Of a DNA stretch of 37,711 nucleotides, positions 14,774 through 36,819 are shown in pieces. The stretch comes from a virus (lineage: Duplodnaviria > Caudoviricetes), in IMG/VR virus record IMGVR_UViG_3300043391_000311, positions 1 through 37,711 of that record; one strand, given 5' to 3'. Made by a program: the position numbers and the translations under genes. Numbering within the stretch: the first letter of the stretch is position 1; each line of letters opens with the position of its first letter. The notes beneath the pieces are model-generated. The model ran no database searches. It saw only the letters and a program-made list of their open reading frames with translations, and was not told the origin of the DNA.

Positions 14774-15048
14774 AGCGTCACGAAATGGAACTCCTTTCCA
14801 AAAAGCAAGCTGCTGTTCGGGTGAAGAGCATCTCTTTGAAAATAGTTCATTAGCAGATAGGCCTAACGCTAATGAGCGATTGCGCTATATTAGCCCATTT
14901 TCAGACTTTTTAGCGCAATGGGCTGTTCGGGAACTTTTGACCATGGTGAGGTGCCACACGAAAAAGGGCGGTTTTTCGTGAGGCAGATTTAAGGCGACAA
15001 GATCAAGTGAGCACGCATCAAAAGCGCCGCCGCCTTTTCGACCCCTTG

Positions 15049-15138
15049 TTGTTGATTGCTCATTCCCTAGACGCACCGCAATCAACAATTAGCCCCCCCC
15101 CTTGTTGTTTGCATTGTTCATCGGCTGCAATCAACAAG
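15049..15138. repeat. Four copies of GCAATCAACAA arranged as two inverted-repeat pairs
   Basis: 15049-15059 pairs with 15078-15088; 15101-15113 pairs with 15126-15138 (one mismatch); separated by a C9 run. Confidence 0.8.
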
Positions 15139-15358
15139 CCTCCCCTCTTGCCGTAAAAAGCGCAGTTGACATCCTGCACCGAGTTCCGCCTTTTTGTCGC
15201 ACGGTTGCCGTTCGTGAGCAGCTGACAGCTATCAACGGCACCGACAGACGCGACGAGCGAGCGGATTGCTAGGCACTCACGGACCAGCACGCCAGCGTCA
15301 CAGGCTTCATTACGGCCTTACCCCCCCCTTGGGGAGGGCCGTGGGAGGGGCCGAGCGT

Positions 15359-15547
15359 TTACTTGCGCTTTTGCTCTATACGTCTGCGTAAAGGCTTCGT
15401 GATGGTAACCGTTTCATGTGTAACGCTGGCATGATTGATGGATTTAATGCGGCCAAGAATATCGGGGGCCTTGTCAGTCAGCCGGTTAATTGCAGCGAGA
15501 TTATTGCGGTTGTGTGGCAATGTAATCGTAAGTCGAATGTATTTCAT
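15359..15547 (-). CDS. Hypothetical basic protein
   Basis: 62 aa directly after TerS, ACCACACTAC leader. Confidence 0.5.
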   Translation of the reverse strand: MKYIRLTITLPHNRNNLAAINRLTDKAPDILGRIKSINHASVTHETVTITKPLRRRIEQKRK

Positions 15548-15558
15548 GTAGTGTGGTC

Positions 15559-15975
15559 TTACTTCCTTCCAAACGTGGCCGCAATCGCCTCAGACAAGCC
15601 AGGGATCTCCACGCTGCCAGAGTGCTTCACCTCATCTGGAGCATACCAAGCTGACGCTTTGCCGACTTCACGAAGGGCACCGGTCGCGGCAGAAAAGTCG
15701 CCGATCTCCTCGGCCTTCCCAGCGATTCCTTCGAGTCGATCGAGCCACTTATCCTTCGTAAGTCCAAATCTCTTATCAGCTGCCTCCGATACTTTCGCCT
15801 TCAGTGCTGCGATCCTGTCGCCGACATGCTTAGCCAGCGCTTTCCCCTCGGTCTTACCCGTTTCATACGAGCACTTGCCATTGCTGACGTGTTCGGTGTA
15901 AGCCTGGACAGCAGACATGCCCAGTGCGACCGCTTGCGCAAAGGCTTCGTGTTTTTGGTTTTTGAGTGCTGGCAT
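15559..15975 (-). CDS. terS: Terminase small subunit
   Basis: MPALKNQKHEAFAQAVALGMSAVQAY HTH-like start, AATGALREVGK, VKHSGSVEI tail; upstream of TerL. Confidence 0.85.
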   Translation of the reverse strand: MPALKNQKHEAFAQAVALGMSAVQAYTEHVSNGKCSYETGKTEGKALAKHVGDRIAALKAKVSEAADKRFGLTKDKWLDRLEGIAGKAEEIGDFSAATGALREVGKASAWYAPDEVKHSGSVEIPGLSEAIAATFGRK

Positions 15976-15980
15976 AGGTA

Positions 15981-16009
15981 ATGATGCGATACTCGCAAAT
16001 TGATGTCAA
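15981..16009 (-). promoter_or_regulatory. Sigma70-type promoter for terS (probably leaderless)
   Basis: minus strand TTGACA-17 nt-CATCAT, 5 nt before the terS ATG; abuts attC-1. Confidence 0.5.
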
Positions 16010-16010
16010 T

Positions 16011-16075
16011 GTCGAACGTCCGATGCAGCGAACTGCTTCGCTGAGGCTCAGTCGTCGCTGATCTTTTGGTTCTGG
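16011..16075 (+). mobile_element. Integron attC-like recombination site (attC-1)
   Basis: R'' GTCGAAC, 5 nt, L'' ATGCAGCG ... L' CGCTGAT, 6 nt, R' GTTCTGG; canonical spacing, arms pair with unpaired (extrahelical-type) bases. Confidence 0.8.
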
Positions 16076-16251
16076 GAAGAAATAGACCCGCCATCGAAGT
16101 CCTTTTGCAGTCCAAGCCTTTCGACCTGCTCCTGGCACCAAGTGGCAAAATAAGAAGCGGCATCCTTTCGCACATCCTTGATGTCCACTCCGTATTCATT
16201 CGCCCATTTCTCAGGGTCTATCTCGATTGTCTGCGTTATCTTGATTTTCAT
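16048..16251 (-). CDS. Hypothetical 67-aa cassette protein whose stop codon lies inside attC-1
   Basis: MKIKITQTIEIDPEKWANEYGVD...SQNQKISDD; TAATG overlap with the Mom-like stop (the ORF track over-extends it to 16731). Confidence 0.7.
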   Translation of the reverse strand: MKIKITQTIEIDPEKWANEYGVDIKDVRKDAASYFATWCQEQVERLGLQKDFDGGSISSQNQKISDD

Positions 16252-17002
16252 TACAGTAGGATTCCTTGTGTTTGCGGTTTGTGTGATGCGTCGTATCTGG
16301 AGTTGTTGCCTTTCGGGTAGGTCTTGATTTCGTATCGAAGGTCTTTCGCCATCGCTTTGCGTTCCTTTTTCGACCCATGAAAGAGAATGTATCGGTGCTT
16401 GCGGTCGCGTGGTTTCCAATACACGTCGTCGCCGTATTTCTCCTTCATCTGATCCTTGGTCATTCCGCGCCCCATTCCAGCCGTGCCGTGGTGCTTTCCT
16501 TCGTGGCCTTTCACCACGGGATCGTAAGTCAGCGTCGAGAGTCCCGTGTAGATGAAGTTGGTCGCCTGATACACGAACCCATGATGCCCCTTGCTGCTGT
16601 CTGCGTATGAGACGATGATCTTTGGTCGTGGCAGCATCGCCACGCATCGTGAGACGAAGAAGGAGGCGAGGTTTTTGCATCCGATTTCGTTTATCACGAG
16701 TCGGTTTAGTTCGCAGACATTCGCCGCCCATTCTTCACCGCATACGCCTTTTAGGAGAGTAGAGCTTACTGGCGTTCCGAAAGTGCAAACCCCTTGCAGA
16801 ATCATCTTTGCATCATACAGGCCGAATGCCCATGAGATTGAGGGTATCCGCTTCGCGTAGTGCTTCATCAGTAGCCATTCATAGGTTTCTTTGGAGTCGA
16901 TAGGCCGCACCGAAAAAGACCCAGAACAAGACGCTGCATGGAACGCCGAGGATCGTCCATCTTGAATCGGGCATTTAATGTCGGCGTCCATGAGCTTATG
17001 CG
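16070..17002 (+). mobile_element. Integron-type gene cassette (933 bp) carrying two inverted genes
   Basis: left junction G/TTCTGGG is the exact reverse complement of CCCAGAAC (16920-16927), the R'' end of its own attC. Confidence 0.78.
16251..16991 (-). CDS. Mom-like (GNAT-fold) DNA adenine modification enzyme
   Basis: KHY, FGLY...GVCTFG, ELNRL, SFFVSR, IIVSYAD..GHHGFVYQATNFIYTG, KHRY motifs match the Mu Mom-like family. Confidence 0.8.
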   Translation of the reverse strand: MDADIKCPIQDGRSSAFHAASCSGSFSVRPIDSKETYEWLLMKHYAKRIPSISWAFGLYDAKMILQGVCTFGTPVSSTLLKGVCGEEWAANVCELNRLVINEIGCKNLASFFVSRCVAMLPRPKIIVSYADSSKGHHGFVYQATNFIYTGLSTLTYDPVVKGHEGKHHGTAGMGRGMTKDQMKEKYGDDVYWKPRDRKHRYILFHGSKKERKAMAKDLRYEIKTYPKGNNSRYDASHKPQTQGILL

Positions 17003-17008
17003 TTCTCA
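16921..17008 (+). mobile_element. Integron attC-like recombination site (attC-2)
   Basis: R'' CCAGAAC, then GCTGCATGGAACGCCGA pairing with TCGGCGTCCATGAGC except for an extra G and an extra A, then R' GTTCTCA; spacers 6 and 7 nt. Confidence 0.85.
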
Positions 17009-17151
17009 GACTTAACCCATCGGGCTTTTGCGGCCTTCGACGCTGCCGCGCTTCGCGTTTTCTTCGTCGTGCCCTTCCATCGGGCCTTACCGCCTTTCGT
17101 GCGGCCTTTGTCTGGCGGCAGTTCGCCGCCGCAGTGCGGGCAAGTTTTCAT
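16996..17151 (-). CDS. Small basic putative DNA-binding protein (CxxC plus GGKARW...AAKARW); stop inside attC-2
   Basis: 51 aa from ATG 17151 (ATGA overlap): MKTCPHCGG...KGGKARW...AASKAAKARWVKSENA. Confidence 0.7.
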   Translation of the reverse strand: MKTCPHCGGELPPDKGRTKGGKARWKGTTKKTRSAAASKAAKARWVKSENA

Positions 17152-17420
17152 GCTGCGGAAAATGGACGCTTGGCAATATAAACGGAATGAGCCTTTGTTT
17201 CTGCATCTTTTTCTGACGGAAAGAATGCCCAGTTGCCAAGAGCAAACGATGCCTTGTAACCAAACACGCCATCCACCCAAGCAGGAATTGCCTCAACTGT
17301 TTTAACCTTGCTCGCCTTGCCATCTATCACATCCCACATCGTGAGCGCGTAGCGCGACACCCTGCAATTGTATGACAATCTCTCTGTTCCGATCTTGCGC
17401 ACGGTAAATGCTGTTTTCAT
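17148..17420 (-). CDS. Hypothetical protein
   Basis: 90 aa, directly behind its own promoter. Confidence 0.65.
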   Translation of the reverse strand: MKTAFTVRKIGTERLSYNCRVSRYALTMWDVIDGKASKVKTVEAIPAWVDGVFGYKASFALGNWAFFPSEKDAETKAHSVYIAKRPFSAA

Positions 17421-17426
17421 GTTCTG

Positions 17427-17454
17427 AGTATATGCGAGCTAGCACGCAGCGCAA
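17427..17454 (-). promoter_or_regulatory. Leaderless sigma70-type promoter with a palindromic spacer (possible operator)
   Basis: minus strand TTGCGC-16 nt-TATACT, 6 nt before ATG 17420; spacer TGCGTGCTAGCTCGCA is a near-palindrome. Confidence 0.65.
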
Positions 17455-17463
17455 GCCCTATTT

Positions 17464-22448: not shown

Positions 22449-22861
22449 GCTTCGCACCCCCATTCTCCTAATCCCAAGGCAATACTACTTTTGAGCCTTG
22501 GAGCTACAGATAATTCATGGCGGCAGAAGTCGCTGCAAATAGTTCCATTGCGGTTGGTTTGGAAAGTGTTTTCGCAAACCCTACATTTAACTTCCTTGAT
22601 TGTTTTGCGTTGATAACCGTGGAATGCGATCTGACACGTTGACGAGCAAAATACTTTATTTGCCCGATCAGTGAGAAAACTAACGCCGCATTTTTTACAA
22701 ACCATCGTGCCTCTGTTTTCCTTGCGTGTTTCCGCCGCAAGAACAGCAGCTTCTCTTATCTTGCGATGCTTGTCATTTATGCGGCATGGGATGCAGCAAA
22801 ACTTTTGGACTTTAGTTGCTGGCTGAAATTCTGTTTTACAAAATGGACAGGTTGATTTCAT
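22445..22861 (-). CDS. Protein with three CxxC...F...CSxxC zinc-binding repeats
   Basis: CPFC...FCCIPC, CKKC...FCSSTC, CRVC...ICSDFC. Confidence 0.75.
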   Translation of the reverse strand: MKSTCPFCKTEFQPATKVQKFCCIPCRINDKHRKIREAAVLAAETRKENRGTMVCKKCGVSFLTDRANKVFCSSTCQIAFHGYQRKTIKEVKCRVCENTFQTNRNGTICSDFCRHELSVAPRLKSSIALGLGEWGCEA

Positions 22862-24087
22862 GGCTCGCCTCCTTCTACCTGGAAAACTTCAACCAACTCT
22901 TGCTTGTCTGCCTTACGACCCAGCGCACCGGCACGAGTCAGCGCCTCGTTGAGCCTATCCTTCGCCTCCTTGGACGTCAGGTTGTAAACGATGCGCTTCG
23001 GCGTCTGTGACGCGATGCCAGAGCGTTTGCGCACGGCTTCTTCCAACGCAGTGATGCTGACGCTGGCAGCTTCCAGCATGTCGCCGTCCGTGATTCCAAG
23101 CGGAGCCAGGGCAGCAAAAGCCTTTTGCGCGTCGGTAACCTCGCGGTTGCCGGGCTTCGTCTCGACCGTCCACCCAGGCATTTCGCCTGCTGTGACACGA
23201 GCGCGGAAAGCGCCTTCGATTGCAGCGGTCATGAGCTTGACCATTGCAAGGCCACGGTAAGCGCCGAGCAAGCGCTCAGGTGAAAGCTCCATTGCACGAG
23301 CAAAGAGAGCGGCGCGTTGCGTGTCGCCTTGCGGAGCCGTCGCCGAGTCGAGCACCTCGACCGTTTGCAGCGCCAGGGTGCGCAACGCAGGACATGACGC
23401 CTTAGCCTTACACCATTTGCACCACGCTCCAGCCCGCACGTCGTCGGGCGTAGAGTTTGCGGCAGCGTCTAGCGAAGCCACGAGCCATTCGTGAGCCACG
23501 GCCAGTGAGCTTGCATTGTAGTCGGCAACAGTCGGCTTGCCAGCCCACGGCTGCACGATGACAACGCGGATCTCGGCGACGCCGTAGCGCAACCAGACGA
23601 GCACCGTCAATGCCGCTAGCTGCGCGTTGTCGATAGCCTCGGCGGTATCGCCACGACCGGTCTTGTAATCAAGGACAAGAGCGCGGTCGCTTTGCACAAG
23701 GATCAAGTCGGCTTGACCCGTGAAGATGAAGTCAGCGGTCGCTTGCGGTGTCACGTCTATAACCTTGCCAAACGCGGTCAGCCCCAGGCGGCGTTCGTAG
23801 AGAGTCTGGTCAGGCGTCACCATGCCGGGTCCGCCATTCCATTCCTCAATGACCTGCGCGGCTGCATCGCTGCACATGTCGCAGGTTTGGAGTTCCGACA
23901 TGGAAAGCGTGCCGGCATCAGCCTCCAGGCCGAGCACCGCATGGATGCGCGTGCCGCTAGCTGCGTCCTCGCGGTGCTCCTCCGGAGGCGCAAAGCGTTC
24001 GAGGTCGAAAGAGGCAGGGCATTCATGGAGCCGCTGCATGCCGGAGGCGGAGGGCACTCCGCGTCGTTGGTCGGGTTGCGTGTTCAT
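22858..24087 (-). CDS. Cas4-like PD-(D/E)XK exonuclease (DUF2800-like)
   Basis: SASGMQR..ECPAS, GTRIH, GQADLI, LDYKTG, NAQL, GAWCKWCKAKASCP Fe-S cluster cysteines. Confidence 0.88.
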   Translation of the reverse strand: MNTQPDQRRGVPSASGMQRLHECPASFDLERFAPPEEHREDAASGTRIHAVLGLEADAGTLSMSELQTCDMCSDAAAQVIEEWNGGPGMVTPDQTLYERRLGLTAFGKVIDVTPQATADFIFTGQADLILVQSDRALVLDYKTGRGDTAEAIDNAQLAALTVLVWLRYGVAEIRVVIVQPWAGKPTVADYNASSLAVAHEWLVASLDAAANSTPDDVRAGAWCKWCKAKASCPALRTLALQTVEVLDSATAPQGDTQRAALFARAMELSPERLLGAYRGLAMVKLMTAAIEGAFRARVTAGEMPGWTVETKPGNREVTDAQKAFAALAPLGITDGDMLEAASVSITALEEAVRKRSGIASQTPKRIVYNLTSKEAKDRLNEALTRAGALGRKADKQELVEVFQVEGGEP

Positions 24088-24974
24088 TACTTCGCTCCTC
24101 CCTTCGTCGTCAGCTTCACAATGGACGGCCAGAACTTGATCGCGTGGGAAAGCGTTTCCTCGTCGGCCGTGTGGGGCGTGGCGGAATCTTTGTCCGTGAT
24201 ACCGTTGCGCTTGAGAACATCCAGCGCTTCCAACCAGTTAACGCCGCTGGACTTGATAAGATTTTCGATTTGATCTACGAGCGTCACGGGCGCGACATCA
24301 ACCAAGACCGGCGACTGCTCAGCGGCTTCCACCTCAACGACCTGCGCTGGCTGTGCTGCCTGCACTGGCTTGGCAAACAGCTTCGACTCAGCCAGAGGCG
24401 TCACGTCGCGTTCTGCGGTGTCGATAGCCTCCTCCGCCGTCATCATGCCCAGGGTAATGTCCGGCGCGTAGAGCCGCGCAAAGAACGCAGCGGCGCGATA
24501 GCGGAGCATCAACTCCGGCATGGTGATCCACTTTGACCCGTTCTTTGTGCTCCACCCCTCGGACTTCGCCATCTCAAGCGTGATCTTTGGTCCTTCGAGC
24601 GTAGTTTTGTCAGCCTTGCTTTTCGCCCAAGCGACGCAAGAACGGTCCGACTTGCCTTCGGTGCCTTCCATCTTGAACTGAAGCGGCTCGAAACGACCAC
24701 TGGAATTGACCATTGCGATAAGGAACGTGGCGCGGAAACTTGGCCGGCCATGAATGACGTCGATGTTCTGAAGCACCATGAATGGATCGGCACCGAGGCG
24801 TTTAGCGATGCTAAGGCCAATGGCGCAGTTGGCAAGATTCCCGCAGAATTCCTTGGGAACCAAGGAGGAGGAGGCAAACATCTTGGCTTGCCGTTGCAGC
24901 ATTTCAAAAGCCGCGTTTTCGCGGGCGATTTGGGCGTCGGATTCGACGTGGGTGGTGGTGAGTTCGGTATTCAT
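24087..24974 (-). CDS. RecT/Redbeta-like single-strand annealing protein
   Basis: probable start 24974; SSLVPKEF, PFMVLQNIDVIHGRPS, AKSEGW...SKW.TMPELMLRYRA..FFARLYAPD..LG; paired with the exonuclease. Confidence 0.85.
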   Translation of the reverse strand: MNTELTTTHVESDAQIARENAAFEMLQRQAKMFASSSLVPKEFCGNLANCAIGLSIAKRLGADPFMVLQNIDVIHGRPSFRATFLIAMVNSSGRFEPLQFKMEGTEGKSDRSCVAWAKSKADKTTLEGPKITLEMAKSEGWSTKNGSKWITMPELMLRYRAAAFFARLYAPDITLGMMTAEEAIDTAERDVTPLAESKLFAKPVQAAQPAQVVEVEAAEQSPVLVDVAPVTLVDQIENLIKSSGVNWLEALDVLKRNGITDKDSATPHTADEETLSHAIKFWPSIVKLTTKGGAK

Positions 24975-25013
24975 TATCGTGGTGGTGGTGATGTGTGGTG
25001 TGGTGGAGTGAAT

Positions 25014-25056
25014 CTCCCTCCTGCCATCTGCCGTGCAGCGGATGGCAGACGGGAAG
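25014..25056. other. Strong intergenic hairpin upstream of the RecT-like gene
   Basis: CTGCCATCTGC...GCGGATGGCAG; no U-tract, so function is unclear. Confidence 0.5.
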
Positions 25057-25057
25057 C

Positions 25058-25327
25058 TCATGCGGTGGCTTTTGCGACCGCTGCGCGTGCGGCGATTCGT
25101 GGAATATCCACGCTCAATTCTGGGTCAAGCTGGCGCGAGGAATTGTCGAACTCTGCAAGCATGGCCTTGAGGGCTTCGAGCAGGTCAGGGGCGGCAGATA
25201 TGAGGCGGGCGTTGGCGGCTTTTTCTGCATCTGCTTTGCCTGTAGAGGCATTCGTGTTTGCTATGCGATCACCGATAGGGCCGGTGACGGTGAGGTTATG
25301 GACGGTCCAAGGTGCGGGAGTGTGCAT
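25058..25327 (-). CDS. Common small phage early protein
   Basis: HTPAPW...ANARLISAAPDLLEALK...ARAAVAKA signature. Confidence 0.8.
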   Translation of the reverse strand: MHTPAPWTVHNLTVTGPIGDRIANTNASTGKADAEKAANARLISAAPDLLEALKAMLAEFDNSSRQLDPELSVDIPRIAARAAVAKATA

Positions 25328-27942: not shown

Positions 27943-30900
27943 TTATTTTTTGTCGCCAAGGTTCTGAATCACCTTGGCCGCATCCAGGCCAGCATGCGAA
28001 AGCGACGCTGCCGCTGCCGCTGTATCGTTAATTAAACCAAGCGTTGAAAGCAGGGTGTCAACGTCGCGCATGTCACCTTCACCGCTGGCGATGTCTTTGA
28101 GCGCAGGCCACGCCCAGGCCACGCCGGAAAGCATTCCCTGATCTCCCATGAGTTCAGATGCCAACGGCACGCCGTGAAGTGGCCCGGTCAGAGCCGCAAG
28201 TGTCAGGCGTTCCGCACTCCATTTCTTTTCGTCGTCGTCCCCTTTGGCCTCGCGCCATAGACCTTTCAAAACCTGAGTCAGCAAACCGCCGACGCCGAAC
28301 ACGAGGAAAGCCGTTTTGGCAAACTGCGCAGGTTCGCTTTTTGCCTTTGTCGCCGCCCAAGCCATGAGCGCGATTTTCTGGCGAGCTTCGGAAGCGTAGG
28401 CCCAGGACACTTTGGCGAGCGGATTTGTGCTCGTGACCTCTGCCAGCGACCGCGCCGCCATGCGGGTAGGCTGTGCCACTTGCTCAGTGTCTCGCTGCGC
28501 TTCTGTGTGCGCGTGTTCTTCGAGATCCGCACCAGTCAAGCCGAGTGCCCGGCCTGTGCCGCGATGGTAATCCAATAGCAGCGCGTAGGTGCCAGCGGTG
28601 AAGAGCGCGTCCGTGCCGCTCAACAGCTGCCCCAGGGCGCGAGTTGCGCGTTTGATTTGATTTGGCCTCGATGCCGCCGCAAGTCCTTCCATAGCTTGCC
28701 GCACGATGGGAGGCGCGGACTTGTAGCGCCGCTGAATGAACGGCGAATTGATAGCATCACGATACCCCAGGTTGCCGGTGAGCAGCTTGGATATGCCAAC
28801 AAGGTAGGAACCGAGCGGCATCTTGACCGACGCCGCCGCCAGCTGCGTTGATTGCACAAGCAGCGTCGAGAAGCGTCCCAAAAGGCCGACGCTTGCAGCC
28901 CGCCCGGTCATGCGTTGAAGCATCTTGTTCATTTCCAGCGAGGACGAGGCATCGCGGAAACCACCTTGAGCAATGGCGTCGATCCACTTCCGCAGAGCCG
29001 TTGCTGCCTGTTCGCCGCCCTTGGCCTTTACCGCGTTGAGCACTTCTCGGTTGCCAAGGATGGCCGACGACTCAAGCGCGAGGTCATAATACGCCTTCCA
29101 GTATTCAAGCTGGCGAGTGTGCATCAGTAGCGTTTGAAGCGCATCGCGGAACTCCGGCTCAGCAATCGCGTTGCGTGAGCGGGTGCGCAGGCTCCCCGGC
29201 GTGAGGATTGAGCCGCTCGACATCGACGCGCCCGATACCGGGTCGATTACCTCGCCCGCCTTTGCTTGGACAGGCTGGACGGTGATCGGCGCATAGTTGT
29301 CATGCGCAGGCATGTTCACGCCGTAGCGCTGGCGGTAGAGCGGATTCAACACAGCATGCTCAGCGCCGTATTTCTGCATGATCCAAGCCATGACGCTTTG
29401 CGCTTCCGGCGTGAGTTGCCCGGTGATTTCGTCGATCCAGGCTTGGTCATAGCTCCACGAGGAAATCGGTTTCCCATCCTCGCCAAGCTGACCTTCCATG
29501 TGCCGCCGCCCGTCTTCTTGCCGCCACATTAGCAAAGCCTGGATGGCCCCAAGCTGCGACAATTCACCTTTGGCAGTCTGAATCGTGCGTTGCGCCATGT
29601 CATAGCGGAGCTTTTCGCCGGCGAGAACTTTGCCGCCCGCGAGCGTGGTGAACAAATTTTGCACCTCGTCAGCGAGCGCCTGATTCACGTCCTCGTATTG
29701 GCCGGATGCTTCGCGCTCCGCATCGACCAGTGATTTCACGCGGGCGGACGTCGAGCCGAAAGCATAGCTCAGAACCTCGTGGAACGACGACAGCGAGAGG
29801 AAGCCGCCCTTGATCTTGCCAAGCAGGGTTTCTGCCTCACGTTCCGCCGCGTCGCGTTCCGGCTTCACGCCAGACTTGCCCGTGTCGGCGATGAATGCCG
29901 CCCGCATGCCTGCGCGTTCCTCGCGCTTCTCGATCTGCGCCAGTTTCCACTTGATCCATCCGCCTTCGTAGATGTCGCGCAAAGTATCCAGCGCTGAGAA
30001 CACGCGGCCAGCATCAGCGTTCTTCAAGTCGCCCACAAGTTCCACGATGCCGCGCTCCGTAATGGCAAGCGCCTCTTGCTCTGGTGTCAGCGTGTCGCCA
30101 CCGATAAGGGAATCAAGCCGTGCCAGTTCACCCGCCACAGCCACCTCGTCCATCTTCGCCGCACGTTCAGCGGCGGCGAATAGCGCGTGCATATCGGCAT
30201 CCTTGCCCTTGCCGCGCTTGCCCGCTTCACTATCAGGACGCGCTTTCTTGAACAGCTTTTCAATCTCTGCGACACCTTCCTTCTTGAGCCACTTTTCAAG
30301 CTCCGCGTTGAGCTTTTCAATCCGGCGCTCGATCTCGTCAAGCATGGCCTCGTCAGTCGCCAGCCCAGCGAGCTTGACGTAGCCGCCCACGCGGGCGCGG
30401 ACTTCGGGCGGAGCAGCAGCAAGGATTCCATCAAGCAGCCGCAGAGCGGCTTTCAGGTTCTCGCGTTGAGCCTTCGGACTTCCGGCCTTCTTTTTGGCGC
30501 CTTCCGCCCATTGGTCAGCTTCCGCCCGGCTGGCATCCTTGGCGTATTTCTGCGCGGCTTTGTAAGCGGCCACGGCTTCACGGTGCGCGGTCTTGTCCTT
30601 TTTCGTGGAGGCGATGCGCTTGCCGAGTTCGTTCCAGAGCGTGTCCGCATAGGCGTCCGGCAAAAGCCCGGCGTCATTCATCGCCTGCGCCATTTGGTCA
30701 GGCATGATGCCAGCGCCCTTAGAATAAAACGACGGCGGCAGCCAAGGGACGCCGTCATAGTCGCCCGCTTTGGCGTCCACCTTGCCCGCCTTCTTGGCGT
30801 TCGTGAACGACATGAGCTTGCCGAAATCCAGCATGGCCGAAACAAGCGGATCATCTTCGAGCGCCAATGGCTCAAATTCCAACGTCTGACGCGCATTAGG

Positions 30901-33900
30901 CGTCAGGCCGTCCATGTAATCATTCATCCGCGCCTCGTAGGCCAGGGCTTCACGCATCCGCGCTTCCTTGCCAATGTCGCCAGCGCCACGAATCACAGCA
31001 GCTTTCTCGATCCATTCCGCGCCGAGTTTTTGCGCCCGCGCTTTTGCCACCTGCGCAATCGCCAACCGCAGTTCAGGGTTGCGCCGGAAGGGAGAAAACG
31101 CGGCAGACATCCGCGACTCGAAGTCGCCGCTACGAATGGAAAACGTAATCCGATTGTCCGCAGGATTGAACCGCTGGCTCAATGGGATGACATTACCTTG
31201 ATCGTCACGGGTGACGGGGTCGGCTGATTTGATTTGGTTGGGGTCTAAAACGATAACCTCATCCGCTTTAGACTCATGCGCGAAACCTTTATTGTATATC
31301 TCAATTGAGTCATAGTCGCCCTTAACGAAATCATAAGCCTCATTGGTTAAGATTCTTGGGAACTCTTTGTTTCCATCGCCAAAAACCTCAATTGCCCACT
31401 CCTTTGTATCCTTATCAAAAACCAATGGGTTTCTGTATTTTAGATAGACGTTGAGAATCTTTTCTCCGGTTTTCTTCTGGTTGTGGTATGCGGGAGTGTT
31501 CTCTTTATCCAGAGAGAAAAAGAACCCCTTTCCAGACTTCCCAATAAGTGTTCTGGTATTACCATTCTTTCCAAGCCATTGACGTGTTTCTTGAAGGTTT
31601 CCACCTTGGATAAACTCATTGAAACTCTCCCAAGTCTTATGGTATGCCTTGGTTTTGTATCCAGCTTTTTCAGCCGCCGCGTCCACCATCGCCTGCTGCT
31701 TGGCAACGTCGCCAGCTTCAACTGCCGCCATGTACTCGGCGTCCATCGCCGGAGAGACGGCGCGGATGGAGAAGGTTGGGCCTTCTACATTTGCGCCTGC
31801 TCCTGCGGCTCCGCTGCCGTTGCCAACATCGCCTCGTCCCCCGCTTCGATTATCATCGAAATCAATTCCGAGATATTGTTTGGCTGCGAGTTGAGCGTAG
31901 TCTGAGATTGTTCCTGAAGTGCTTCCATATTTGTAACCCGCTTCGCGGCTTTTGAATATCATATAGAACCAACGAACTGCTTGCAAGGCTGAAGGTTCAA
32001 AATCTTGGCCCATCTTTACCTCAATTGTTCGCTTGAATGCTGATGCAAAATTTTGGAAAATTTCATGCTCCATTCCATTTGTTGGCAATCCAGTTCCGTT
32101 TTCAAACATCTGTGGGAAGTAGGATCGAATAAATCGACTTTCCCAAATGTCGGTGGTTGTAAAACGAGAATCACCTGTGGCGTTGAGGGTGTAAGCTCCA
32201 ACCTTTGGGCCAAATATAAACATTCTAGGAATGAGCTTATCCTGGCCAGTGGCTTCATTCACTACCCGTCGAATGTCGCCAATGTCAGAAACTCCGCCAG
32301 CATAACCCATTTCTTTATTAAATGCGTGCAACTCTTTGCTGGTGATGCCTTCATGTAAATAAAAGTTTACAGCTTCCCAGTTTCCAAGCTTTTTAAATAA
32401 TCCCTCAATTACTTTTAGGGTAAATATCTTGTTCGCTCCTGTGTTTGATTGAAGTTTAAAAGGATTTCCATCCTTCACCTTTCGGTTACCTTTTTCAGAT
32501 CGTTCAAGCTCAAGCTTTCCAAAAGACTTTTCTGACTGCCAAAGGTTCATCACTTGCATGGCATCAGCCAGATTCCCGCGCAAAGGCGTGGCTGGAGATG
32601 TTAATCCAGTGAACAATCTAAACCCAACAAAATCATCATTTGTGAAATTTGGGAAAGTGATATCAAGGATGTTCCTTGTAGTGTTCCAGTCGTCGGCATA
32701 GTAATTGAGATACTTTGGATTCTCTTTTAACCATCCAAGAATATCATCGACCGATCTGCGTGCCGCTTCATTAATGTTTCGCAGCGATGGCTTAAGCCGT
32801 TGCCCTGCGGCTTTCATTAACTCAGGCCAAAAAACATTAAAGAAATCATCATCAGCCTCCTCAAGAGCTTTGCCCATTTCTTCTCTTGATTTTTTCCACT
32901 TGTTAATTTTCCGCTGCATAAGCGGATCATTTCGTTTTGATTCTGCTAAATTCGTTGCTGCACTAATAGAGAAAGTCGGCCCATCCACCGGCTTCTCGTT
33001 CTCTTCAAGGATCTTCACCAGCGACTCGTCAAAAATAACATAGTTGCTCGTGCCTTCACCTGCTCCTCGTGAGCCGCCGTCAAGGTAGCGAATGCCGGGA
33101 ATGCCAAGGGAGGCAAGATATTGAGATGCGCTAGGCGCTGATTTGCGAGAAAGAAACGCAGCCGGATCATCAGTAGAGAGGCTTTCGTAAAACTTTGCGC
33201 CTGTATTGTTCTCAAAAGTGAACCGCGACGATTTGGTCTTTGCTAAAATGAGTTCAATCGCCGCCTTCACCTTGTCGCTCTGCTCACTCAGCGGCTTGTC
33301 CCAGTCGAGGAAGTCAGCCTCGTCCGGCAAGAGTTCCACGGTGTAGAGGTTACCGCCGCCACCTTCGGCTGTGTCGATCAAATAAATAGCTTCATCGGCC
33401 ACCTCTTGGCTAATGATGCCGTCACGAAGTTCTGACCGGATTTCTCTTTTAGCCTCCAGCTTGTTGCCTTTATAGCCAAGAGTTCCTTTGGCTTTATAGG
33501 CTGCCTCTGCGCTCACACTTGGGTATTCTGCAATGAGTTTCCAAGCAGTAGCGCCGAGGCGTTTTTGGTACTCTGCTGCCACGGCCTTTTCCTGCGCAAA
33601 ATACAGCCCCCAGCCATAAGCCTGGGCACCTTCGCCCGTGCCGATCTTAGCCATGCGAAAACGATCCACTTGATACGGCGTGCCGTGGTAGGCGCGGACG
33701 CTAAACGTGGTCGGCCCGACAAGTCGCGCACCGTCAGGCATTTGCACGATCTTCGAAGCGTCAGCGGGAACGGCGCGAGACATCGAAAACGTCTCGCCAT
33801 TCGGACCTGGCGCTTCTTCCGAATAGGTCGCGCCGCCCACGTTCAGCGCCTCGTTGGCGATGGCTTCGGCGTCCGCTGATGCTTCGCGCTCGAACTTGGC

Positions 33901-36819
33901 TTGCTGATCCACGCCGAGCAAGTCGTCAATGTACGCGTCGTATTCGTCGCCCAGTTTGCCAGTCTTTCGAGCTTCGCGGATTCTCTTCGCCGTTTGCAGC
34001 ACGGAAGCCAGAAGGCGCTTAAATGCGCGAACCCACGCCACCAAAGGCGAGTTGTTTTCTTCGAGCGATTTCGTGATTGATCCGCTTCCAATACGCCGAC
34101 CATCTTGCAACCTGCCGAGCACATCAGCCACGACGATACGTGAGACGGCCTCCACAAGCGCACGCGGGGCAAAGTCTGGCGATGCGTTCACCGCGTCAGA
34201 CGTGGAGCCAATGAGAAACTTTTCGCCCGTCGCTTCTTCGGCTTGCTGGATGAGTCCGAGCCAATCGCTTTTTTTGTAGCGGCCAAGTCGCAGCCCTTCC
34301 TTCAGTCGCCCCTCGCTCGTTTCTTCAATAAGAGTGGTTAGGTTCGCGCTTTTAAATAGCTTCGACTTCGACACTCCACCCTCAACCACATTGGAACCGA
34401 GAATGATGGCTCTTTCGACAGCATCACGCATGATCTTGATGCGCTCTTCCTGCGACTCTCCAAAGACGTCCGCCGCGATCTTGCGGGCCTCGTCAATATT
34501 TACGCCTTGTATGACGTTGGCCGCGATTGCCGCCTTGATGGCGTCCTCTGGAGACATGGAACCACCGCGAACGCGAGTCGCCAAAGAATCTGACGGACGA
34601 GGTGACACAGTGACCTCTTCGCCCTTTTGCAAAATGTCGTCTGCGATTCGGAGAATGGAATCATTGTTGATCCGCTCCATCTCGTTCATGTTCTGCTCAA
34701 TAACTGGTTGAGCATCGCGCCATGAGTCGAAGGTTGCTTTGCTGCCATCGTTCAAATCCGTCACGACCACTTTGCCACCAGGGAGGAGCGTGTACTCAGG
34801 AATCAGACCTTGGCGAGTCACTTCAACGACGGCCTCGGCGACCGCTTTTTGTTGTGTATCAAGTTTGTCTTGATACTCCGCCGCAACTTCAGGCGAACGG
34901 TGCGTGAAAGCTTCACGGTAAAGCGCCTGCGCCTCATCCATTTTCCCGGCTCTAGCCGCCTCTAAAATCGGCACCGCCTTCACTTCAATGATGCCCTGCT
35001 CTCCAAGCCTGTCACGACTACTGAGCAAGTTTTGCGCATCTTTGATGTCGCGATGTGTGGCAATGCCAGCGCCAAGAAGAATGAGCGGAATGCTGGCGAT
35101 TGCCACCGTTCCGCGAGAGTTCTTCCATCGTTCCCATTCAGAAGCCATATCCAGCCCGGTATCTATGCCAACGGCCTCAAACACAGCCCGCGTGAACGGC
35201 ATCGTCAAATCTTGAACGCCTTCTTGAGCTTGCTCAAAAACAAAAGTTGCCCCAAGCCTTGCGCCAGCATTTCGCCACGCCGCACTTGTGCCGCTTTTCA
35301 GCACGGCTGCGACACTCGGCAGTTTGCGTAGAATATTAATCTCAAAGGCATCAAGTGCGGCCTCGCCAGCGCCAGACACTCTTGAAATCAACCGCGCCTC
35401 GGAAGGTTCAAGCGATGGATTCTCAAGCCTTAACTGATCGTAATTGGCTTCTGAATACAACTGCCAGGAAATCGGCAGGGTTTTGCCGCGCGTCAAGACG
35501 TTCACCGCCGCCATAGCGACGGTGCTTCCAATCGCGCCGGAGATCTCGCCAACGGGATCGGAGCTTTCTGCGATGGACCGCAATTCACGGGCAATCTGGT
35601 TTTTCTTAAACTCTCTTTTTTGAGCCGCTTCAATGAGCTTCTTTTCATCGGCATCAAGTTCGCGGTATTGCTTGGCAGTTTGACTTGCTTCATCAACGTC
35701 CGCTCTTGTCACATCTGATGCCACCGTTCCAAAGGTCGTCACTTTCCATTCTTTAATGAAATCTGCCGCTTTCTCGGCGCTGTCGATTTTTTCCATTGAT
35801 GTGTAAGCCACACCGGAAGCGATAGGATGCCGAGCCTTTGCCGCATCCGTAATTAACGGCAGCGTTGGCATGTTCGACATGCTTTCAAGTTCCTCGTCTT
35901 TGGCAATCCCTCCAAACTTGCCAACGTATCGACCGCCGCTTTCTCCGATTTCTTGGAAAAATCCCGTGATGGCGTTGATTGCAGCGCCAGCTCCGCCCAT
36001 AGGGCCAGACTCACGAGCGCCGATGCCTTTCACTGCTTTCTCACCTCTTGCTTGAGCCATCATCGTTGCGGCTGTCAAAACGGCTTTTCGTTTTGCCCCT
36101 GGCAAATCCAGCAGAAGACCCTCGAAATCTTTCAGCGTTTCTTTGTCACCGTCTTTCGGCAATCCCTGCATGGTTCGCTGGTAAGCGTCAACAGCGTCGG
36201 ATAAACCGACGCCGGCAATGACTTCCCGTGCCTGCAAAAAGCCACGCGTGTACTCGGTGGAATCTGGCAGTCGGTCGAGATTCTTGGCCTGCCATGCCTG
36301 GAGCGCCGGAATGACATCGTCACCAAGCAACGCTGCTTTCTGGCCTTCCGCCTCGGTGTCCTCTTTCTGCTTCACGCGCTGGAGTTCCTTTGCGGCAGAT
36401 GCATAGAAGGCAAGATCGTCCAAGCCCTTTGGAGCCTGAAGAAACCGCGTTGCGTAGTCGTTGCGATAAAGATCAAGTGACGCGTTGATTTCGTCAGCCG
36501 TCTTGCCGTAGCGAGATGCGAGGTAGGCGGTATTTGCGACTCGTGCCCGGTCGGCGTCAGGATTGTCCGAATAAGGTAGGATGGCAGCTAGCGAAGGCGC
36601 GATGGCATCGACCGTCTTCAAGTCATTGAACATCCCGCGCAGGCGGTCTTTCTTCTCTTGTTCGGCCTGCGCCTGCGACGGCCATTCAGGCTCGCCGTTG
36701 TCGTCCTGCTGCCGCTTGTAGCGGGCGAGGATGTCGAGTGCCTGCGGGCGTTGCACTTCGTCCATGGCATCAATTCCACGGGCGAGGGCGAAGGCGTCAG
36801 TTTCAAGGATTCGGGGCAT
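27943..36819 (-). CDS. Large polyvalent internal virion (ejection) protein, 2958 aa, with two ART-like and one HhH-glycosylase-like modules
   Basis: position after the internal virion genes; YHGT...GWGLYFA...YVIFD and YHKT...GFFFS...EVIVLDPNQIKS ADP-ribosyltransferase-like motifs; hydrophobic C-terminal region. Confidence 0.85.
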   Translation of the reverse strand: MPRILETDAFALARGIDAMDEVQRPQALDILARYKRQQDDNGEPEWPSQAQAEQEKKDRLRGMFNDLKTVDAIAPSLAAILPYSDNPDADRARVANTAYLASRYGKTADEINASLDLYRNDYATRFLQAPKGLDDLAFYASAAKELQRVKQKEDTEAEGQKAALLGDDVIPALQAWQAKNLDRLPDSTEYTRGFLQAREVIAGVGLSDAVDAYQRTMQGLPKDGDKETLKDFEGLLLDLPGAKRKAVLTAATMMAQARGEKAVKGIGARESGPMGGAGAAINAITGFFQEIGESGGRYVGKFGGIAKDEELESMSNMPTLPLITDAAKARHPIASGVAYTSMEKIDSAEKAADFIKEWKVTTFGTVASDVTRADVDEASQTAKQYRELDADEKKLIEAAQKREFKKNQIARELRSIAESSDPVGEISGAIGSTVAMAAVNVLTRGKTLPISWQLYSEANYDQLRLENPSLEPSEARLISRVSGAGEAALDAFEINILRKLPSVAAVLKSGTSAAWRNAGARLGATFVFEQAQEGVQDLTMPFTRAVFEAVGIDTGLDMASEWERWKNSRGTVAIASIPLILLGAGIATHRDIKDAQNLLSSRDRLGEQGIIEVKAVPILEAARAGKMDEAQALYREAFTHRSPEVAAEYQDKLDTQQKAVAEAVVEVTRQGLIPEYTLLPGGKVVVTDLNDGSKATFDSWRDAQPVIEQNMNEMERINNDSILRIADDILQKGEEVTVSPRPSDSLATRVRGGSMSPEDAIKAAIAANVIQGVNIDEARKIAADVFGESQEERIKIMRDAVERAIILGSNVVEGGVSKSKLFKSANLTTLIEETSEGRLKEGLRLGRYKKSDWLGLIQQAEEATGEKFLIGSTSDAVNASPDFAPRALVEAVSRIVVADVLGRLQDGRRIGSGSITKSLEENNSPLVAWVRAFKRLLASVLQTAKRIREARKTGKLGDEYDAYIDDLLGVDQQAKFEREASADAEAIANEALNVGGATYSEEAPGPNGETFSMSRAVPADASKIVQMPDGARLVGPTTFSVRAYHGTPYQVDRFRMAKIGTGEGAQAYGWGLYFAQEKAVAAEYQKRLGATAWKLIAEYPSVSAEAAYKAKGTLGYKGNKLEAKREIRSELRDGIISQEVADEAIYLIDTAEGGGGNLYTVELLPDEADFLDWDKPLSEQSDKVKAAIELILAKTKSSRFTFENNTGAKFYESLSTDDPAAFLSRKSAPSASQYLASLGIPGIRYLDGGSRGAGEGTSNYVIFDESLVKILEENEKPVDGPTFSISAATNLAESKRNDPLMQRKINKWKKSREEMGKALEEADDDFFNVFWPELMKAAGQRLKPSLRNINEAARRSVDDILGWLKENPKYLNYYADDWNTTRNILDITFPNFTNDDFVGFRLFTGLTSPATPLRGNLADAMQVMNLWQSEKSFGKLELERSEKGNRKVKDGNPFKLQSNTGANKIFTLKVIEGLFKKLGNWEAVNFYLHEGITSKELHAFNKEMGYAGGVSDIGDIRRVVNEATGQDKLIPRMFIFGPKVGAYTLNATGDSRFTTTDIWESRFIRSYFPQMFENGTGLPTNGMEHEIFQNFASAFKRTIEVKMGQDFEPSALQAVRWFYMIFKSREAGYKYGSTSGTISDYAQLAAKQYLGIDFDDNRSGGRGDVGNGSGAAGAGANVEGPTFSIRAVSPAMDAEYMAAVEAGDVAKQQAMVDAAAEKAGYKTKAYHKTWESFNEFIQGGNLQETRQWLGKNGNTRTLIGKSGKGFFFSLDKENTPAYHNQKKTGEKILNVYLKYRNPLVFDKDTKEWAIEVFGDGNKEFPRILTNEAYDFVKGDYDSIEIYNKGFAHESKADEVIVLDPNQIKSADPVTRDDQGNVIPLSQRFNPADNRITFSIRSGDFESRMSAAFSPFRRNPELRLAIAQVAKARAQKLGAEWIEKAAVIRGAGDIGKEARMREALAYEARMNDYMDGLTPNARQTLEFEPLALEDDPLVSAMLDFGKLMSFTNAKKAGKVDAKAGDYDGVPWLPPSFYSKGAGIMPDQMAQAMNDAGLLPDAYADTLWNELGKRIASTKKDKTAHREAVAAYKAAQKYAKDASRAEADQWAEGAKKKAGSPKAQRENLKAALRLLDGILAAAPPEVRARVGGYVKLAGLATDEAMLDEIERRIEKLNAELEKWLKKEGVAEIEKLFKKARPDSEAGKRGKGKDADMHALFAAAERAAKMDEVAVAGELARLDSLIGGDTLTPEQEALAITERGIVELVGDLKNADAGRVFSALDTLRDIYEGGWIKWKLAQIEKREERAGMRAAFIADTGKSGVKPERDAAEREAETLLGKIKGGFLSLSSFHEVLSYAFGSTSARVKSLVDAEREASGQYEDVNQALADEVQNLFTTLAGGKVLAGEKLRYDMAQRTIQTAKGELSQLGAIQALLMWRQEDGRRHMEGQLGEDGKPISSWSYDQAWIDEITGQLTPEAQSVMAWIMQKYGAEHAVLNPLYRQRYGVNMPAHDNYAPITVQPVQAKAGEVIDPVSGASMSSGSILTPGSLRTRSRNAIAEPEFRDALQTLLMHTRQLEYWKAYYDLALESSAILGNREVLNAVKAKGGEQAATALRKWIDAIAQGGFRDASSSLEMNKMLQRMTGRAASVGLLGRFSTLLVQSTQLAAASVKMPLGSYLVGISKLLTGNLGYRDAINSPFIQRRYKSAPPIVRQAMEGLAAASRPNQIKRATRALGQLLSGTDALFTAGTYALLLDYHRGTGRALGLTGADLEEHAHTEAQRDTEQVAQPTRMAARSLAEVTSTNPLAKVSWAYASEARQKIALMAWAATKAKSEPAQFAKTAFLVFGVGGLLTQVLKGLWREAKGDDDEKKWSAERLTLAALTGPLHGVPLASELMGDQGMLSGVAWAWPALKDIASGEGDMRDVDTLLSTLGLINDTAAAAASLSHAGLDAAKVIQNLGDKK

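Follow-up and report, generated by a model that had tools for sequence, protein, structure and literature searches.

A phage gene cassette lying antisense and in a fixed frame between two attC sites

The stretch of DNA analysed here (the window) spans 37,711 bases, has direct terminal repeats and represents a whole phage genome. It carries T7-like virion genes, a terminase, DnaB, RecT and an exonuclease, with nearly all genes on the minus strand. Two attC sites and a cassette occupy a slot bordered by replication genes on one side and by the terminase small subunit on the other. The content of this slot is variable: relatives whose terminase small subunit is 98-100% identical nevertheless carry other genes there, the near-identical phages L002-L004 lack both attC sites as well as the Mom/67-aa cassette, and L005 has a different site. 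The features of the locus are as follows.

15559..15975, minus strand: terminase small subunit (phrog_51), the fixed neighbour of the array
15981..16009, minus strand: motif resembling a sigma-70 promoter (TTGACA-17-CATCAT), immediately following the attC-1 R'' box
16011..16075, plus strand: attC-1 (R'' 16011-16017, R' 16069-16075; spacers of 4 and 5 nt), a short anchor site by the terminase promoter
16048..16251, minus strand: 67-aa ORF without a known family; attC-1 contains its final 7 codons and its stop
16070..17002, plus strand: cassette unit delimited by two successive G/TT crossovers, holding the 67-aa gene, the Mom gene and the attC-2 core
16251..16991, minus strand: predicted Mom-family DNA-modification gene, 246 aa, its first ~24 codons from attC-2
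16921..17008, plus strand: attC-2 (R'' 16921-16927, L'' 16933-16939, L' 16990-16995, R' 17002-17008)
16996..17151, minus strand: KARW ORF, basic, 51 aa, ending Glu-Asn-Ala-stop in attC-2
17425..17456, minus strand: promoter-like motif before the 90-aa and KARW ORFs, with 33 nt at 97% identity to the start of the KARW cassette of L157

Every gene local to the two attC sites lies on the minus strand, while both attC top strands are on the plus strand. The Mom ORF is a member of the Mom family and a predicted DNA-modification gene, as it matched Pfam PF25680 over residues 26-227 (E 2e-33, 116 bits against a cut-off of 27.1), phrog_1384, and Mom in PDB 8bv8 at E 1e-5. Mom has an anti-restriction role. 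The NCBIfam search gave no match for six local proteins. The sigma-70-like motif search found 1 motif against 2.1 expected, which is weak alone, and TTGAC is kept at that position in many relatives; the motif at 17425..17456 is a putative promoter. Elsewhere in the window, the approximately 800 nt between the terminase genes (14774-15558) hold no identified protein-coding gene, and segments of them are absent from close relatives; this is possibly a packaging or regulatory region. A 2958-aa protein (27943-36819) with an ART-PolyVal domain is a phage protein of the polyvalent type.

Both sites display the box anatomy of attC. In attC-2, R'' ends in AAC, R' begins with GTT and the L'' and L' boxes pair; the spacers measure 5 and 6 nt, the R''-L'' arm leaves bases unpaired at site positions 16 and 23, and there is a 6-bp stem. 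The first unpaired base is a C on the bottom strand and not the usual G, as is also the case in related bacterial sites. attC-1 has the same AAC and GTT ends, paired L''/L' boxes, an L box identical to that of attC-2, and unpaired bases at 15 and 22. Site calls come from a structural scanner whose stricter versions missed attC-1; on shuffled loci it gave 1 match in 557 kb (viral) and none in 496 kb (bacterial). The attC-2 family has 23 viral matches, and a search of the cultured-phage collection gave no match to attC-2; an alignment of 30 attC sites was poor in the loop. Folding speaks less clearly and would suit hairpins that are RNA signals or chance inverted repeats instead of recombination sites: attC-2 folded as an attC hairpin is modestly better than shuffles (z -1.7), the lowest-energy fold of attC-1 differs from the attC hairpin (z -1.5), and attC-2 contains a terminator-like match, within chance. 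We consider this reading highly improbable in view of the box anatomy, the near-zero scanner null, the window's lack of any Rfam match, and the end complementarity, crossover-exact swaps and adjoining IntI-like genes of relatives described below.

On the terminase side of attC-1, the small-subunit ATG lies 36 nt beyond the site, behind the promoter-like motif, and attC-1 therefore supplies no start. In relatives, the place held here by attC-1 and the terminase gene with its promoter is held by intI and an attI-like site. Homologues of attC-1 have three different neighbours after GTT (in the window, in L007 and in run X6 record 19). An attC-like site often stands directly before the terminase TTGAC motif (window 15975-16075, L007, L047, L048, L051-L055, L057 and L058) and is absent there from L002-L006 and L008-L011; it may be a fixed landing site.

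Read on the minus strand, both sites are coding. The 67-aa ORF (16251-16048) reads through attC-1 as CAG AAC CAA AAG ATC AGC GAC GAC TGA, and the KARW ORF (17151-16996) runs into attC-2 as GAG AAC GCA TAA, where the TAA at 16998-16996 is followed by GCTC and then an ATG (16991). Backwards, attC-2 spells Asn-Ala-stop, 4 nt, ATG and the Mom leader. The codon readings that the first-pass annotation gave for the two junctions are all present in the sequence; its description of the sites as stop/start punctuation holds in full for attC-2, whereas attC-1 furnishes the stop only. Within the cassette, the start of the 67-aa ORF overlaps the Mom stop (TAATG). This ORF has a 43% homologue in the attC-free locus L230. 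Its family precedes Mom in attC-free phages, whole or truncated (L230:1278-1430, and upstream of Mom in L227 and L228), while in the cassette it follows Mom, so that the order is circularly permuted relative to those phages; going by the sequences, the permutation is a possible trace of cassette formation. The KARW gene has a homologue in a complete cassette of L157, which ends Glu-Asn-Asp-stop in another attC, and the gene together with its promoter-like motif (window 17009-17460) matches that complete cassette (L157:2514-3158). The KARW ORF probably represents the end of an earlier cassette; no attC belonging to that cassette is seen in the window.

The unit between the two crossovers is a cassette in its ends and in its distribution. 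It runs from crossover to crossover, its first bases after the attC-1 crossover are complementary in 8/8 positions to the R'' end of its own attC-2, which is the signature of a unit that was once a circle, and it occurs in several contexts (the window, L006 and X6). In X6, a separate sequencing run whose study is not marked as a source of this DNA, a contig of 1650 nt agrees with 16069-17003 except at 4 positions, and the DNA to either side of the match is different. Its left flank is another attC-2-family arm and its right flank is unrelated DNA, so that the 67-aa ORF there ends Gln-Asn-Ala-stop. The same ending is found in L006 behind a related arm, although the DNA downstream looks mosaic and may be misassembled. 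The earlier expectation that both products stay terminated after excision was thus borne out for this QNA-stop; the ENQKISDD-stop of KARW follows by deduction and was seen in none of the sequences. At the right junction of run X6 record 20 (window 17003), GTG stands in place of GTT, reflecting either a non-standard target or a later change.

End complementarity was found in 37/58 viral neighbour pairs, against a shuffle mean of 5.2 and a maximum of 13, and in 18/20 bacterial pairs. The eighth complementary base is present in 29/35 viral and 10/17 bacterial cassettes, with background beyond it. A target duplication from the 10/11-base direct repeat near the cassette ends was rejected, such a repeat occurring in 1/35 viral cassettes against 1.0 in shuffled ones.

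Recombinant pairs establish the polarity of exchange. Among 121 unique viral sites we identified 18 such pairs, 14 of which break at the GTT of R'. The shared part was the distal flank only in 9 pairs, body and core in 5, the body only in 4 (in one of these the cores differ modestly, being 80% alike), and core plus distal flank in 0. The core thus travels with the gene that starts in it, which sets the polarity; the reversed polarity, with the crossover at the R'' box, is ruled out by the lack of any pair sharing core and distal flank. Consistent with this, the same site motif as in attC-2 flanks sense genes in bacteria. Moreover, in two related phages (L159:3226-5980 and L197:3997-4834) one methyltransferase cassette is placed differently, exactly at GTT. 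The Mom junction of the window also occurs behind an eroded site with the leader still in frame (L223:2600-2750) and behind a different leader (protein P0001), from which it appears that attC cores can decay or be replaced while the frame is kept; together with the body-only pairs, these cases indicate that other exchange routes exist. No excised circle or empty-site joint was found among four contig sets, and contigs drop rare forms.

These observations bear on whether the cassettes still move. They might once have been moved by an integrase and now be frozen in the lineage, with attC serving as stop/start linkers and as short homology for RecT-type recombination. The genome has no tyrosine recombinase (0 PF00589 matches over its full length), it carries RecT and exonuclease genes at 22858-25061, attC-1 is non-canonical, and the eroded site of L223 and the mosaic DNA past the junction in L006 would fit as well. 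However, the X6 cassette has only 4 differences and different neighbours, with both breaks at the crossover, and in 9 pairs unrelated cores join the same distal flank at GTT, which homology alone would not predict. We therefore regard frozen cassettes as unlikely.

We then consider how general the arrangement is. Viral loci were gathered through homology to the terminase and Mom as well as through attC patterns, and a similar pattern yielded 91 bacterial loci; the coding frame of each flank was called from amino-acid log-odds over the 150 nt adjoining the site. In total there were 186 viral and 57 bacterial calls, the majority of the bacterial pattern matches having been excluded because they did not pass the pairing test. 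Because the locus patterns were built on attC-2, one site family is over-represented in the sample; related contigs are partly dependent, and a few scanner matches in long genes are probably false. Two viral pattern scans gave no matches, the gap range of the second being too short for known long sites.

The distal flanks were antisense, sense and uncalled in 78, 4 and 30 of 112 unique viral cases and in 3, 27 and 18 of 48 bacterial cases (p 2e-18). Among called flanks, 78/82 viral ones were antisense compared with 3/30 bacterial ones, so that the antisense orientation first noticed in the window extends to most called viral flanks of this sample. For verified cassettes only, the corresponding counts were 26/1/8 (viral) and 1/11/5 (bacterial). 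A general statement that all phage arrays are inverted is ruled out by phage TJE1, whose genes are sense. In TJE1 (L249, 240-300 and 1015-1080), sense genes enter attC, read the AAC of R'' as an in-frame Asn codon and end within the site.

The frame at the crossover is fixed as well. The viral antisense genes are distributed 62/12/4 over the three frames at R', 62/78 crossing with AAC in frame where one third would be expected if junction frames were random. When pattern-matched sites were removed, the distribution was 43/12/4 (p 6e-10). At R'' the counts were 28/32/12, that is, not locked, indicating that the lock is limited to the junction that is shuffled. In GAAC-type sites, 59/66 genes are in the Asn frame and 52 of those 59 stop inside the site; in TAAC-type sites, 5/7 stop on the TAA of R'. 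The fixed Asn frame and the stop borrowed at the crossover, proposed from two junctions, are therefore the rule in many phages. As for starts, an ATG inside attC that is open across R'' was present in 53/73 coding frames as opposed to 23/146 control frames. The in-frame ATG described for attC-2 recurs throughout its family, the L' ATG lying in the longest open frame in 19/19 members despite site lengths of 87-91 nt. The distance from stop to ATG falls within -11..+10 nt at 25/47 sites, and at 22/47 more than 10 nt separate the two codons.

The bacterial sites show how much of this is older. In bacterial GTTC-type sites an antisense stop in the Asn frame is present in 23/33 (15 and 13 in the other frames), and in 98/104 viral sites (Fisher p 5e-4). 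Sites of a sister family in Prosthecobacter and other Verrucomicrobia read backwards as Asn-Val-stop. Since the antisense stop already exists in bacterial sites, the grammar is partly inherited and not purely phage-made, and on these comparisons the stop looks like an inherited feature tightened by selection. Calling the arrangement phage-adapted was hence an overstatement. The further claim that it differs from ordinary cassettes, whose genes would stop before R'', was too strong: of 14 sense genes called at bacterial GAAC-type sites, 9 have their stop within attC, as do the two TJE1 sense genes. Three features remain distinctive here, namely that the genes are inverted, that their frame is locked where the crossover falls, and that the likely start lies within the site. 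Site similarity also allows a guess at a Verrucomicrobia host. Sites of the attC-2 family with antisense genes occur in bacterial genome bins (L082:685-774 and L151:298-387), L082 being a 1.2-kb contig in a Verrucomicrobiota bin; they are probably phage DNA and hint weakly at the host.

Where translation of Mom begins decides whether attC-2 also supplies a start. As first noted, the initial ~24 codons are attC: codons 1-23 and two bases of codon 24 lie inside attC-2. In 111/120 Mom homologues, 6-15 residues are predicted up to an aligned Ile, against 31 in the window. The far shorter lengths up to the Ile in these homologues mark the leader as foreign to the family. Homologues at 90% identity that are free of attC begin MTSVFSV where the window has attC-CSGSFSV, so that between attC-bearing and attC-free Mom about three codons are replaced by the site. 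In L206, a C5-methylase domain begins at residue 24, and all upstream start codons are inside attC.

The alternative is that inversion and borrowed stop are real, with Mom starting at the in-frame GTG of codon 28 (Val28), 4 codons past R'', the leader being untranslated and there being no coupling. Such a start would agree with the short N-termini of 111/120 homologues, and the predicted mRNA fold pairs the AUG. However, it would leave 4 residues up to the Ile, fewer than in any of the 120 homologues, it would lose the Phe-Ser shared with the 90% homologue, and the GTG has no Shine-Dalgarno-like purine run upstream when read by eye; the leader is moreover in frame and open in 19/19 family members. 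The pairing itself can be taken another way, since a paired AUG 4 nt past a stop fits reinitiation. We thus hold a GTG start to be quite unlikely, and Mom probably starts at the internal ATG of attC-2, as judged from these alignments.

The window has no intI gene and is not a complete integron. A CALIN is defined as at least two attC sites within 3 kb without intI (Qi 2023, PMC9892861), and the array corresponds in number, spacing and lack of intI, with two same-strand sites 845 nt apart. Its cassette is not of the canonical Pc-expressed type, as both genes are antisense. Integrase genes do accompany such arrays in relatives: an IntI-like gene of almost full length is present in 6/34 related viral records (at 194-281 bits, with 1 exceeding the TIGR02249 cut-off), with an integron-type insertion judged by eye against bacterial IntI. 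In the four mapped loci that contain it (L159, L181, L215 and L220), the IntI-like gene occupies the R'' end of the array and shares its strand with the cassette genes. In L235-L240 (viral records G003, G005, G012, G019, G027 and G028), IntI-like genes stand by inverted arrays and are co-directional with them. In L235, L238 and L239, the last cassette gene reads across an attI-like site, keeping AAC in frame, and reaches its stop within 2-6 codons, and the attI-like sites of L239 and L240 are common up to GTT and differ after it. Among 12 bacterial genomes chosen for related sites, 8 have an IntI over the cut-off.

Taken together, we propose that the locus holds a phage-type, inverted, frame-fixed integron cassette that takes its stop from the neighbouring attC, likely has its start in its own attC, and would be moved by an integrase from outside; we put the probability of this reading at roughly 0.78. 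It builds directly on the anatomy and polarity of the sites, on cassette ends that recur exactly among other neighbours, and on a frame rule that holds in many phages. In the proposed mechanism, IntI from the host or from a co-infecting phage would move the units, cutting the folded bottom strand at the AAC of R'. The array would be transcribed not from Pc but from a phage promoter at its far end, toward the terminase genes. In the mRNA, a hairpin would sequester the AUG until a ribosome terminating at the TAA, which lies 4 nt upstream, opens it and reinitiates. The Asn frame may have become fixed because host attC sites often already had a stop in that frame; shuffling would then have favoured sites and genes that keep to it, so that each gene stays ended and started after any swap. 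The cargo would protect phage DNA from restriction, the family-matched cargo being mostly DNA-modifying enzymes. Anti-restriction is the likely benefit because 9/18 other attC-2-family genes match DNA/RNA methyltransferase families, 8 of them over the cut-off.

A broader picture can be put forward tentatively, with somewhat less than even confidence: a shared pool of phage-gene cassettes, inverted and frame-locked, in which attC and attI act as stop/start linkers, phage or host IntI moves the units, and inversion works as a firewall. One idea is that inversion silences host and phage cassettes mutually. Host cassettes are reported often to encode phage defence (bioRxiv 10.1101/2024.07.02.601686 and 10.1101/2024.07.02.601719). 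If the picture holds, host defence cassettes in phage arrays, and phage cassettes in host arrays, would face away from the promoter, and near-identical genes with and without attC would make cassette origin traceable. The Mom genes at 90% identity with and without attC are a rare before-and-after pair for how cassettes are made. A large class of phages that inverts its cassettes and uses attC as coding punctuation would represent a second way to run the integron machine, and would give phages a site-specific route to exchange anti-restriction genes without breaking operons. Gene callers also take attC-derived tails as protein sequence, which affects the annotation of many phage proteins.

Compared with known systems, the array resembles the CALINs reported in virulent phages by Qi 2023 (PMC9892861), which have at least two attC sites, no integrase and DNA methyltransferase cargo, and of which 5/6 tested sites recombined with IntI1. 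That paper also notes divergent attC sites in P12002L. In its accessible text, antisense genes, frame-locking and starts inside attC are not reported for these CALINs, and at the two sites tested in its phage TJE1 the genes run in the sense direction of attC, in contrast to the antisense genes here. The accessible text of Cury 2016 (PMC4889954) contains nothing on cassette gene orientation, and our literature search, with most subscription papers outside it, found no account of inverted or frame-locked cassettes. Canonical attC sites (Nivina 2016, PMC5027507) share the R and L boxes, the unpaired bases at 16 and 23, the 6-bp stem, the crossover at the AAC of R' and the circle signature. Canonical cassettes, however, are described as requiring the sense orientation toward Pc, the gene being silenced when inverted (PMC5027507), whereas here the cassettes are inverted as a rule and would be expressed from the array's far end. 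In class 1 integrons, ORF-11 in attI1 and short ORFs inside attC encode sense-strand leader peptides (PMC8876359). As at our junctions, ORF-11 extends over the crossover and depends on the incoming cassette for its stop, and translational coupling via attC hairpins is described there as it is proposed here; unlike it, the proteins that end and probably begin in attC here are the cargo itself, on the antisense strand and in one frame across the pool. Relative to the Mom family of phage Mu (PF25680, 8bv8), residues 26-227 match and the N-terminal leader appears to be derived from attC. Clusters of attC in phages are thus known from Qi 2023, and what is new relative to the literature found is their inversion and frame-locking.
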